Below, piece after piece: positions 39,001-43,904 of a stretch of DNA of 64,000 nucleotides. This DNA is from Eledone cirrhosa. Lineage: Eukaryota. Within the stretch, counting starts at the first letter, position 1. Every line of letters begins with the position of its first letter. Under the pieces are notes generated by a model, which did not search any database, had not been told where the DNA came from, and worked only from the letters and a program-made list of their open reading frames with translations. The stretch covers positions 248,001 through 312,000 of the forward strand of contig CAXHJY010000001.1 in assembly GCA_964016885.1 (NCBI GenBank), in the 5' to 3' direction. The translations under genes and the position numbers were made by a program.

Positions 39001-41485
39001 GACTCACTACCATAACATAACCTCCGCATTCATCACCCATGTCTCACTACCATAACATATCCTCCACATTCATCACCCATGTCTCACTACCATGTAACAT
39101 AACCTCCACATTCATTACCTATGTCTCACTACCATAACATAACCTCCACATTCATCACCCATGTCACACTACCATGTAACATAACCTCCATATTCATCAC
39201 CCATGTCTCACTACCATAACATATGCTCCGCATTCATCACCCATGTCTCATTACCATAACAGATCCTCCACATTCATCACTCATGTCACACTACTATGGC
39301 ACATAACCTCCACATTCATCACCCATGTCTCACTACCATAGGATATCCTCCATATTCATCACCCATGTCTCACTACCATAACATATCCTCCACATTAATC
39401 ACCATATCTCACTACCATGTCTCACTACCTTAATATATCCTCCACATTCATCACCCATGTCTCACTACCATGTAACATAACCTCCACATTCATCACCCAT
39501 GTCTCACTACCATAACATAACCTCCACATTCATCACCCATGTCACACTACCAGAACATATCCTCCACATTCATAAACCCATGTCTCACTACCATAACATA
39601 TCCTCCACATTCATCACCCATGTCTCACTACCATGTAACATAACCTCCACATTCATCACCCATGTCTCACTGCCATGTAACATAACCTCTACATTCATCA
39701 CCCCTGTCACACTACCATGTAACATATCCTCCACATTCATCACCCATGTCACACTACCATGTCACATAACCTCCACATTCATCACCCATGTCACACTACC
39801 ATGTAACATAACCTCTACATTCCTCTCCCATGTCTCACTACCATGTAACATAACCTCCACATTCATCACCCATATCACACTACCATAACATATCCTCCAC
39901 ATTCATGACCCATGTCTCACTACCATAACATAACCTCCACATTCATCACCCATGTCTCACTACCATAACATATCCTCCACATTCATCACCCATGTCTCAC
40001 TACCATAACATAACCTCCACAATAATCACCCATGTCTCACTACCATAACATAACCTCCACATTCATCACCCATGTCTCACTACGATAACATATCCACCCA
40101 ATTCATCACCCATGTCTCACTACCATGACATAACCTCTACATTCATCACCCATGTCTCACTACCATGTAACATAACCTCCACATTCATCACCCATGTCTC
40201 ACTACCATGTAACATATCCTCCACATTCATCACCCATGTCTCACTACCATAACATATCCTCTACATTCATTACCCATGTCTCACTACCATAACATATCCT
40301 CCACATGCACCACCCATGTCACACTACCATGTAACATAACCTCCACATTCATCACCCATGTCTCACTACCATAACATATCCTCCACATTCATCACCCATG
40401 TCTCACTACCATAACATATCCTCTGCATTCATTACCCATGTCACACTACCATGTAACATAACCTCCACATTCATCAACCATGTCTCACTACCATAACATA
40501 ACCTCCACATTCATCACCCATGTCTCACTACCATGTAACATAACCTCTACATTCATCACCCCTGTCACACTACCATGTAACATATCCTCCACGTTCATCA
40601 CACATGTCACACTACCATGTCACATAACCTCCACATTCATCACACCTGTCACACTACCATGTAACATATCCTCCACATTCATCACCCATGTCTCACTACC
40701 ATGTAACATATCCTCCACATTCATCACCCATGTCACACAACCATGCAACATAACCTCCACATTAATGCCCCATGTCTCACTACTATAACATAAGCCCCAC
40801 ATTCATCACTCATGTCTCACTACCATAACATATCCTCCACATTCATCACCCATGTCACACTACCATGTATCAACCTCCATATTCATCACCCATGTCTCAC
40901 TACCATGTAACATAACCTCTACATTCATCACCCATGTCTCACTACCATAACATATCCTCCACATTCATCACCCATGTCACACTACCATGTAACATAACCT
41001 CCACATTCATCACCCATGTCTCACTACCATAACATATCCTCCACATTCATCACCTATGTCTCACTACCATAACATATCCTCCACATTCATCACCCATGTC
41101 ACACTACCATGTAACATAACCTCCACATTCATCACCCATGTCTCACTACCATAACATATCCTCCACATTCATCACTCATGTCACACTACCATAACATAAC
41201 CTCCACATTCATCACCCATGTCTCACTACCATAACATATCCTCCACATTCATCACCCATGTCTCACTACAATAACATATCCTCCACATTCATCACCCATG
41301 TGTTACTACCATAACATATCCTCCACATTCATCACCCATGTATCACTACCATAACATATCCTCCACATTCATCATCCATGTCACACTACCATGTAACATA
41401 TCCTCCACATTTTATCACCCATGTCACACTACCATGTAACTTATCCTCTACATTTTATCACTCATGTCACACTACCATGTAACAT
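1..41485. repeat. Satellite array A: about 1000 tandem monomers, mainly 42 bp (tc[a/t]cactaccatgtaacatatcctccacattcatcacccatg) and 40 bp (tctcactaccataacataacctccacattcatcacccatg), with 39/41/29-bp variants
   Basis: Periodicity read directly: 1-40 is a 40-mer and 41-82 a 42-mer. The pattern continues without interruption to ...actaccatgtaacat at 41485. Copy number estimated as length/41. The array runs off the left edge. Confidence 0.98.
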
Positions 41486-41620
41486 TGCACTTCATACACA
41501 CACATCATACAGCTTACCTTTCTTTTCTAGGGAAAAACCTTTTGCTGTCGACAGAGGTAGCAACTCCCTGAATCTTTTCTATCCTGTTTTTAATCTAGCT
41601 ATTATACTCACACCTAGGTA
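41486..41620 (-). mobile_element. Degenerate RTE-clade non-LTR retrotransposon (LINE) ORF fragment, C-terminal RT/thumb region
   Basis: Manual minus-strand translation from 41620: YLGVSIIARLKTG*KRFRELLPLSTAKGFSLEKKGKLYDVCV*SA, continuing in frame into MLHGSVT (41485 downwards). This fits the RTE-type pattern YLG...ARIxxGWxKFRELLPLL...KGxLYxxCVRSAMLxGSETW. Stops replace W (41579-41581) and R (41492-41494). Confidence 0.85.
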
Positions 41621-42231
41621 GCCTAAGTTAATATATATTATTATTATTTTGACAGGACTCTTCCGTTGTGTCAGACATCACAAACTCCCTATTGTTGGTC
41701 ACACAATAAAATGCTGGAATACATGAAAGCCAGATGTAGTCCATGGCCCATCTAAGAATTCAGTAGCTCCAATTTAATTCCTGACTTTGTTTGTGAGCAC
41801 CCATCCAACCCACGCTGTCAGGAAAAACATGTTAAATGAGGATGATCAATATAATGATTAGCCTTATTTTCCTGTTCTGTCACTTCATTACAGCTGTGTG
41901 TATTTTGAGCATTCCAACCTGTTTTTGTAGTGTTGTTTCTATAATGCTGTTTTGTAATTTCCAGGAATATCTTGAATGCAGTTTCATGTGGTATTAAGAG
42001 TTAAAGGGTCCCTATTTAAATCAATTCCTTTCAAAATAATTTGTTATAAGAACTTTTTTATTAAGTTATTTACAAATACTATTTTAATAATGAAATATAT
42101 GATTTTTAGTATTCCTTCAAGTTCTTCATTAATTAATTGGTATACAAGTATGTCATTATAAATATATGTATGTTGTTAAAAATATGACCACAAATGATTT
42201 TAATGTAATTTTCTTCTCAATTAAATTGCAG

Positions 42232-42388
42232 AGAATTCTATAAGATGGTGAGTGACTATAGTCTCATTAAAAATAGATTGAGTTCACAACCAAGAAGTAC
42301 TTTTTTTGTTCCAACTGATGAAGCTCTGAAGAATGTAAACCAAGAAAAACTTCAACAGTTAAAGAATGATGTAAAAAAACTAGACAAG
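42232..42388 (+). CDS. Internal coding exon (157 bp, phase 2 to phase 0) of a fasciclin/FAS1-domain protein
   Basis: Acceptor ttttcttctcaattaaattgcAG ends at 42231 and donor AAG|GTAATG starts at 42389. Open frame EFYKMVSDYSLIKNRLSSQPRSTFFVPTDEALKNVNQEKLQQLKNDVKKLDK contains a FAS1 H1 motif (consensus TxFAPTxxAF, here TFFVPTDEAL) and the following helices. It stops just before the expected ILxYH motif. Flanks are AT-rich and intron-like. Confidence 0.85.
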
Positions 42389-42568
42389 GTAATGTGCAGT
42401 GAAATAAAATCCTACATTGACAATACTGGAGAAACATATGGATCCCAAAATAACCTTTGCATTTTACTGAATTCTCTTTCCAATATTTATCAAAATTTAG
42501 CAATAAATATATTTTTTTATTCTTATTGCAAATCGTATTGAGAAATATAAACAGTACTGGGATAATGT

Positions 42569-43117: not shown

Positions 43118-43206
43118 TGTCCTAATTTATAACACTGTTTAGACAAAACTGTCCTAATTTATAACTGTTTAGACAAAACTGTTCCTATTTACAGTACTGT
43201 TTAGAC
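43118..43206. repeat. Three tandem copies of a 27-32-bp unit (tgtcctaatttataac(ac)tgtttagacaaaac)
   Basis: Units at 43118-43149, 43150-43179 and a degenerate copy at 43180-43206. Confidence 0.9.
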
Positions 43207-43315
43207 TGTCCCATATTTTCAACAGAACTGTCCCATATTTTCAACAAAGTGTCCCATATTTTCAACAAAATGTCCCCCATATTTTCAACAAAATGTGTCC
43301 CATATTTTCAACAAA
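43207..43315. repeat. Five tandem copies of a 20-25-bp unit (tgtcccatattttcaacaaa)
   Basis: Units start at 43207, 43229, 43250, 43271 and 43296. Confidence 0.93.
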
Positions 43316-43904
43316 TATATTAGAGCTATACAAAATATTAGACGTGAAAGTGAGTCACCTTGGAAAATTTCGCAGTCGATGCTAATATTGTTTGAACTTA
43401 GTACTCCATTGGAATGGTATAATTGGAGATTTGTGTTCCACAATGATATATTAGGTTTCGAAAAGTTTGAAATTACGGGGGAAATTTTGAAGATGTCCAG
43501 TGATTTCAGACTCCATGAGTGCGGTATGCTGTCAAAAGCTTTTTTATAATTGATCCATGTGGAACTTAGATACCTGCACTTGTTATGACAGTTCTCAATG
43601 ATTGTAGGATTAATTAAGAGTTGACCTTTACATCCATTGGCACCCTTTTTGTTCAGTAGGGAAAATATTGCTCTCTTCCATAAATACATGTTTTCTCGGT
43701 GAAAATAGATGTTAAAACTTCATAAGTGGTGAATAAACAGGTTTGGGGTCAATAGTTTTTTGGTAGTAATACCACATGTTATCAGTCATGTAGTTTTTCA
43801 AGATCTTTCATAATTCCATTGAACAGCTTCACTAATATTTTGGTGCACACGAGAGCAATGAAAGTCAGAAATTTGTCACCCTATCTTTACCAGGAAATTT
43901 CCAC
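43316..43904 (-). pseudogene. Decayed reverse transcriptase fragment of a non-LTR retrotransposon, R2/R4 superfamily (R4/Dong-like), RT domains 0 to about 4
   Basis: Reading across frameshifts on the minus strand: KWKFPGKDRVTNF*L ... KILVKLFNGIMKDLEK ... ITCGIT ... PKNY*PQTCLFTTYEVLTSIFTEK ... FMEESNIFPTEQKGC ... GCKGQLLINPTIIENCHNKCRYLSSTWINYKKAFDSIPHSW ... IFQGDSLSRLIFCIALI. These correspond to the LINE RT motifs PGxD, NYRPI, DxxKAFDS and QGDSLSP. The catalytic YxDD is absent. Confidence 0.92.

Follow-up and report, generated by a model that had tools for sequence, protein, structure and literature searches.

The window analyzed here is a 64,000-bp stretch of the 3.0-Gb Eledone cirrhosa assembly (G000:C16:248,001-312,000) and lies on C16, a contig of 810,597 bases. 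Two satellites on the minus strand, A (positions 1 to 41,485) and B (43,904 onward), are found in it 2.4 kb apart. Satellite A is the in-window part of an array at C16:162,421-289,485, i.e., 127 kb, a length whose exact value depends on the assembly; the original prediction, which had put it at more than 41 kb, was right about a long array and short of its true extent. The 38-bp units of satellite B fill positions 43,904 to 64,000 and belong to an array of 32 kb (C16:291,904-323,839). About half of the contig (C16:1-412,000) was read and holds four large arrays, the other two built of a 21-mer (139 kb, C16:21,587-160,733) and a 17-mer (41 kb, C16:333,377-374,361); together the four take up some 340 of these 412 kb. 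A weak search for the parents of the 21-mer and 17-mer arrays found none among the loci in hand. The contig also carries a 4.3-kb element with a 98-bp internal repeat (C16:395,092-399,355), 99.4% identical to a copy on contig C15 (C15:31,532,842-31,537,095), which is probably a young mobile element.

Within the window, satellite A abuts what is left of the 5' side of a decayed RTE-like LINE (41,486 to 41,622, minus strand), corresponding to the end of the reverse transcriptase (RT) region (YLG...KGKLYDVCV*SA), with two in-frame stops; its start at ~41,622 follows an internal deletion close to the 5' end. The minus-strand flank, ...YLGVSIIARLKTG*KRFRELLPLSTAKGFSLEKKGKLYDVCV*SA (also read ...ARLKTG*KRFRELLPLSTAKGFSLEKKGKLYDVCV*SA), meets the sequence ATG TTA CAT GGT AGT at 41,485 without a gap. 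The first monomer (41,443 to 41,485, minus strand) starts with the ATGT border and is colinear with the LINE's single MLHGSETWAVNVED segment; both it and the second monomer are 43 bp long, the first with one extra A and a TGA stop. The predicted minus-strand translation of the monomer, MLHGS(E/V)TWVMNVED, was found in the common monomers. As for the gapless, in-frame passage from LINE to satellite, the gapless part stood, but the frame stays open for seven codons only (MLHGSVT*), being closed by the stop in the first monomer, and the flank itself has two stops. That the flank is LINE sequence was borne out by a DNA search with positions 41,400 to 41,640, which retrieved family copies at E values of 1e-38 to 1e-26 in alignments that crossed the junction into the monomer; genome matches to the flank were 76 to 85% identical, again with the junction crossed. 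The continuity of flank and monomer is far beyond chance. One outside contig, which may derive from the source sample, is identical to positions 41,471 to 42,400 but reaches only 15 bases into the array, and RAD reads matched other family copies only, so that independent support is provided neither for nor against the junction.

At the far end of the array, the ORF was found to resume, as had been anticipated, as VMNVEVM*RLEINKPNML*WMCNVNI at C16:162,420, from where it continues through RRLHWYGHV for ~360 bp in all, up to a (GAT)n tail located at C16:162,057. A tblastn search with P0001, the open 699-residue frame of a natural copy of the family (L119:1,272-3,368), placed residues 527-574 on the 5' side of the array and residues 570-640 on its far side, the monomer itself being residues 568-581. 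The word ATGT stands at both array borders; the unit had been described as bounded by ATG, and a shared border is indeed present, but in the C16 copy it is ATGT and not only ATG. Satellite A lies inside one decayed RTE-like LINE copy, both junctions of which are intact. This host copy differs by 14 to 16% from the family's commonest letters and carries stops; inspection by eye revealed no target-site duplication around it. About 1 kb past the far end of the array, at L039:3,289-3,422 (C16:161,289-161,422), the terminal part of the last monomer and the 3' flank are repeated exactly (116/116 flank bases), a very recent templated duplication of the far junction.

RTE-clade LINEs have one ORF of ~1,050 to 1,100 aa with AP endonuclease and RT, and a tandem-repeat 3' end is a general RTE trait. 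The family that gave rise to satellite A is presumably RTE, a name that goes back to the original prediction and to the domain layout, the relatives of P0001 being without clade labels. P0001 contains an RVT_1 domain (E 1.5e-32), and its best relatives, 46 to 57% identical, include many single ORFs of ~1,030 to 1,105 aa with endonuclease and RT domains (PF03372 and PF00078), often also with a PHD domain (PF00628). A PHD-like zinc finger, just under Pfam's cut-off, directly follows the RT domain in P0001 and is common to many relatives. A loose GSETW-type pattern was present in 103 of 120 relatives. In 25 of 27 genomic copies (by a loose criterion), as in the C16 copy, two or more GAT units are found close to the 3' end. 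Domain layout and 3' tail fit an RTE family. In the accessible parts of the respective sources, RTE-2_OV is given as a 1,109-aa protein with EN, RT, and zinc finger (PMC9115989) and the 3' end of plant RTEs as a short tandem repeat instead of poly(A) (PMC3747384). At least 15,543 copies in the genome carry two exact motifs of this LINE region.

If satellite A arose from the LINE, ordinary family members should hold the 42-mer once, and this was the case: 27 of 29 copies had exactly one site (at least 27/42 letters), two had none, and none had two. The natural monomer matched the single-copy segment of the family at a median of 33 of 42 letters, compared to a maximum of 26 for shuffled monomers, and in the 29 fetched copies the segment runs into RLERNEA(S/C)MLRWMC-type sequence with no second unit. 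The proposed order, with the 42-mer ancestral and the 40-mer derived, was likewise upheld, as the two bases that distinguish them are kept in 27 of 29 aligned copies; one family copy (L005) has independently undergone the same 2-bp loss and one other has a larger deletion.

Satellite A comprises ~3,100 units. Among 3,108 spacings, 1,540 were of 42 bp, 1,226 of 40, 196 of 39, 63 of 29, and 51 of 41, and the mean identity of the monomers to the commonest one was 94.8%. Identical 120-mers recur at distances of 17,465, 3,549, 3,346, and 1,908 bp. The array thus combines a monomer source that is single copy in its family, a long head-to-tail arrangement, and homogenization with block structure, as TE-derived satellites do. 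The ancestral GGCAGTG form is absent from the array, end monomers included; every monomer is of the GTGAT type at a site where family members carry GCAGT, GTAGT, or the like, and GTGATG was found in none of the 17 single copies listed, suggesting that the seed had decayed before it was duplicated. Taken together, the flank divergence (0.14 to 0.16), the 94.8% monomer identity, and the recurrence of blocks at 1.9 to 17.5 kb suggest that the insertion is old, that the duplication followed later, and that the array has grown block by block in recent times.

In its anatomy satellite B matches A: the array is enclosed by a dead LINE, here from a second family, and the two junctions have been preserved. 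The EDISIADLRMALTK stretch of that LINE makes up the 38-bp unit, and the array is flanked on the 5' side by ...WIRHTEESYKNL*RQTCK, and on the 3' side by KWKFPGKDRVTNF... through YKKAFDSIPHSW, and AAAG is found at both ends. The 3' continuation past the satellite, a decayed RT (KWKFPGKDRVTNF...YKKAFDSIPHSW...GDSLS), occupies positions 43,320 to 43,903 on the minus strand, the Pfam RVT_1 domain being recognizable on family copies in L239; the 5' side is found outside the window, at C16:323,840-324,040. Alignments were colinear across the B unit on both sides in 19 of 25 second-family copies. Two tiny tandem repeats (~31 bp × 2.8 and 23 bp × 5; positions 43,118 to 43,315, between the two satellites) lie at the end of the second LINE remnant. 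Since the 38-bp unit of B breaks the frame, the 14-codon length of the A unit is incidental; an in-frame length has no meaning here because the host copy is dead and sibling units measure 38, 47, 43, 51, and 58 bp. A coding role for satellite A was rejected, its longest stop-free run being 101 codons and shifting between unit frames. No function is implied, and neutral turnover is the default reading.

A short sister array of satellite A, with ~23 units (42- and 35-mers), is present in a LINE copy on C15 (L087:586-1,655; C15:31,539,790-31,540,860). Exact matches to the junction numbered 720 genome-wide: 707 in satellite A, 12 on C15, and one on C3. The C15 and C16 arrays share monomers, and their 3' flanks are identical at 110 of 116 positions (0.95, versus a highest value of 0.88 for pairs among 24 family copies) while their 5' flanks agree at only 83 of 105. 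With the 3' flank shared and the 5' flank at family background, one of the two loci is chimeric: one LINE copy appears to have acquired the array together with a short stretch on the 3' side, as in homology-directed repair. A segmental duplication linking C15 and C16 was unsupported, the matches listed near the array consisting of the shared 3' flank and common repeats.

We consider it likely, with a probability of roughly three in four, that satellite A began at C16 as a microhomology-guided duplication and then grew by repeated block duplications. The sequence of events starts from a LINE copy that decayed at C16, with a seed that would already have changed from GCAG to GTGA. The two ATGT words, spaced by 42 bp, may then have allowed slippage or strand invasion, with two units as the product; a short direct repeat at both unit borders is as in microhomology-mediated duplication, ATGT, at 4 bp, being a short and common word. 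The units next diversified into the 40-, 39-, and 29-mers and the GAG/GTG and GAT/GTT variants now seen in the array. As the identical blocks 1.9 to 17.5 kb apart suggest, unequal exchange or break-induced copying of multikilobase blocks would have carried the array to ~3,100 units. Finally, the C15 LINE copy may have been repaired off the 3' end of the array, taking ~23 units and 116 to 155 bp of flank with it. An unamplified allele or orthologue of the C16 insertion was not seen in the one genome at hand. The in-place duplication of a LINE piece put forward in the original prediction holds as to the LINE origin and the two junctions; birth at C16 itself is likely and not proven, because the C15 sister array suggests ectopic transfer of arrays between LINE copies.

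Such transfer could also have run in the opposite direction. The array would then have been born in another LINE copy, the C15 one or one since lost, carried to C16 by homology-directed gene conversion, and expanded there, with 41,485 as the crossover point. The distribution of identity between the two loci, with no common non-LINE flank among the matches listed, speaks for this scenario, and a 22.4-kb 42/29-mer array of the same LINE segment on C3, beyond which the LINE resumes, has the same 42-bp register and also the GTT variant, the latter present in one of 17 single copies. The flanks were compared with a 24-copy panel (the subfamily-A copies among 35 spanning both flanks, from 73 loci, and partly picked by likeness to the C16 flanks). 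Divergence in this panel was 0.16 for the C16 5' flank, in keeping with the average value of 0.14 for the shared 3' flank, and 0.29 for the C15 5' flank, which exceeded all 24 copies and so stands as the outlier, against an origin on C15. This divergence-based direction was not reproduced with a panel chosen without either flank, in which the mean 5' identities, 0.734 for C16 and 0.720 for C15 (10 copies), left the two 5' flanks unseparated. The monomer variants also speak against birth elsewhere, five polymorphisms in a 23-unit array being easier to account for as a sample of a large array, and their cluster being at the 3' end of C16 only: the counts of the five C15 variants in the last versus the first 20 kb of the C16 array were 49/14, 28/10, 15/0, 11/4, and 8/1. 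One C15 variant was commoner at the 5' end of C16 (2 versus 8) and two were absent from C16; 35-mers lacking in C16 occur in C15, where the ATGTT-type 40-bp unit is present just once. On this evidence we regard an origin outside C16 as unlikely and C16 as the probable birthplace of satellite A.

The segment that gave rise to satellite A has been amplified elsewhere too. In addition to the C3 array, a 3.3-kb array of 47/45-mers is found on C28, and 27- and 79-mers from the same segment occur on C24. Two 69/73-mer arrays in opposite orientation lie 3 Mb apart on C28, one of 93 kb (C28:118,099,460-118,192,640; L161, L170-L171), the middle of which is known from pattern matches only, and one of 13 kb (C28:115,105,100-115,118,200; L181, L185). 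Neither has LINE flanks, and both have apparently spread away from their birthplace. Colinear LINE sequence was found on both sides in 11 of the 21 other arrays of the satellite A segment examined, a count that leaves out L207, whose 5' match is the tail of another copy.

A search of the genome for tandem pairs of matched 13-mer motifs (panel conservation, 0.48 to 0.52) allowed the satellite A segment to be compared with other parts of the LINE. The satellite A motif gave 3,174 matches and at least 23 tandem loci on contigs C1 and C2, of which 18 had a 47-bp unit. This unit was recorded at L196-L213 and L176 (C1, C2, C28), and 16 of the 18 C1 and C2 loci fall within ~27 Mb of a contig end. The −96 motif gave 47 matches and 14 loci, four of them on C1 and C2; its reversed control gave 200 matches, which indicates that one array can dominate a match total. 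The +54 motif had 347 matches, mostly GA-rich noise, with one of five C1 and C2 loci LINE-like by eye, and the +293 motif had 79 matches and 11 loci, two of them on C1 and C2. The +189 motif, from the WYGHV segment, yielded 13,123 tandem matches, more than any other motif, and at least seven loci on C1 and C2, making it probable that much larger LINE-born satellites exist elsewhere in the genome. An array of the WYGHV segment is seen at L241 (C2:400,913,600 onward). A 51-bp unit from the 3' region of the LINE was observed at four loci (L246, L247, L248; C22, C23, C5), as a second unit recurring in several copies. All segments tested, that of satellite A and the four controls, have seeded arrays, and LINE sequence was present on both sides in six of the eight control-segment arrays seen end to end. 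By locus counts on C1 and C2, the satellite A segment exceeds the −96 segment (23 versus 4, P = 0.0003); by distinct junction types, scored by eye, the figures are 7 versus 4 (P = 0.55). The satellite A segment has the most loci on C1 and C2, but since 18 of them have one 47-bp unit in common, a hotspot there is no more than possible.

The recurrence of one 47-bp unit in 18 of at least 23 C1 and C2 arrays would be compatible with a first duplication during retrotransposition itself, the RT jumping back between ATG words so that the unit was already doubled in the newly inserted copy, whose source may have been a subfamily with the duplication; for many human TE-derived repeats, initiation of this kind is proposed in the accessible text of PMC3389668. 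For satellite A we hold this to be very improbable, given that monomers of the ancestral type are missing from the whole array, its ends included, and that a genome search for the 3'-junction pattern found a single match, on C15. Flanking sequence at the 47-mer loci also argues against it, being mostly at family background (~60 to 90% where both are LINE) save for one trio at 92 to 98%. Independent birth of the 47-mers was examined by a Mantel test of unit distance against 3' flank distance, which gave r = 0.28 (P = 0.12) for 14 of the 19 loci, two near-duplicates and three without a usable flank having been dropped. Many of the 47-mer loci are bordered by TGTG pairs, which the 5' flanks of L201 and L210, as they now stand, lack. 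Chance likeness, insertion of the LINE beside an older satellite, or misassembly can practically be dismissed: neither junction is spanned by an independent read set and the array length rests on the assembly, but the two junctions, although separated by 127 kb, map to neighboring codons of a single ORF, the observed match was never reached by shuffled monomers, and the short C15 and 22-kb C3 arrays share the layout.

With an in-place origin at C16 as the preferred reading for satellite A, a wider picture suggests itself, tentatively and with some doubt on our part, in which dead LINE copies would act as a genome-wide satellite seedbed and landing network. The MLHGSETW..EDM segment, bracketed by nested short repeats, would be a sequence-determined hotspot that repeatedly yields 47- and 42-bp units, and arrays would hop by ectopic gene conversion.

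The origin of satellites from TEs is already known, and no new mechanism is claimed here. LINE ORF2-derived satellites described in the accessible part of a review (PMC9659126) include chicken HinfI (CR1), Phodopus PROsat (L1 ORF2), seal Pvc20 (L1 ORF2), and the cetacean common satellite (3' part of L1). Satellite A resembles these in having a monomer homologous to part of a non-LTR retrotransposon, coding sequence included. It differs from them, as there described, in that its monomer is wholly LINE, its parent is attached on both sides of 127 kb, and the element resembles RTE, a term absent from the main text of that review. Human TE-derived minisatellites, in the available text on them (PMC3389668), similarly arise by in situ duplication in single TE copies, a minority with short direct-repeat borders, and from uneven TE regions (AluS, LTR12); those of Alu average ~2.3 to 2.4 units and borders of 5 to 20 bp were counted, whereas the arrays here reach 10 to 127 kb with a border of 4 bp. 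Like the satellites of Ogre LTR retrotransposons in Lathyrus sativus, the LINE-born repeats form short arrays in dispersed elements with large expansion now and then; unlike those, which are described as short repeats within LTR elements, ordinary copies here have one unit and arrays appear in single dead copies (PMC7004042, available text). Microhomology-mediated tandem duplication, a general process, in the accessible portion of PMC13167724 also involves a segment between short direct repeats, with events recurring at the same arms; the duplications there are single, against thousands of units here, and ATGT is a short arm. Our search, which covered subscription papers incompletely, found no report of a satellite born from an RTE ORF with both junctions.

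The start of a satellite is usually deduced from partial homology after the parent has been lost, while here the parent flanks both ends of 127 kb. Preserved along with the two ends of the array are a short sister array and numerous siblings, dozens of them, from 2 to >1,000 units, in or derived from copies of one family. If the seedbed interpretation were true, this would amount to a full series, from 2 to >3,000 units, with parents attached. According to a 2022 review (PMC9659126, accessible part), conclusive evidence for a preferential use of particular TE parts is lacking. This genome makes that preference countable, along with why some seeds stay at 5 units and others reach 100 kb, and whether arrays spread by conversion between TE copies.
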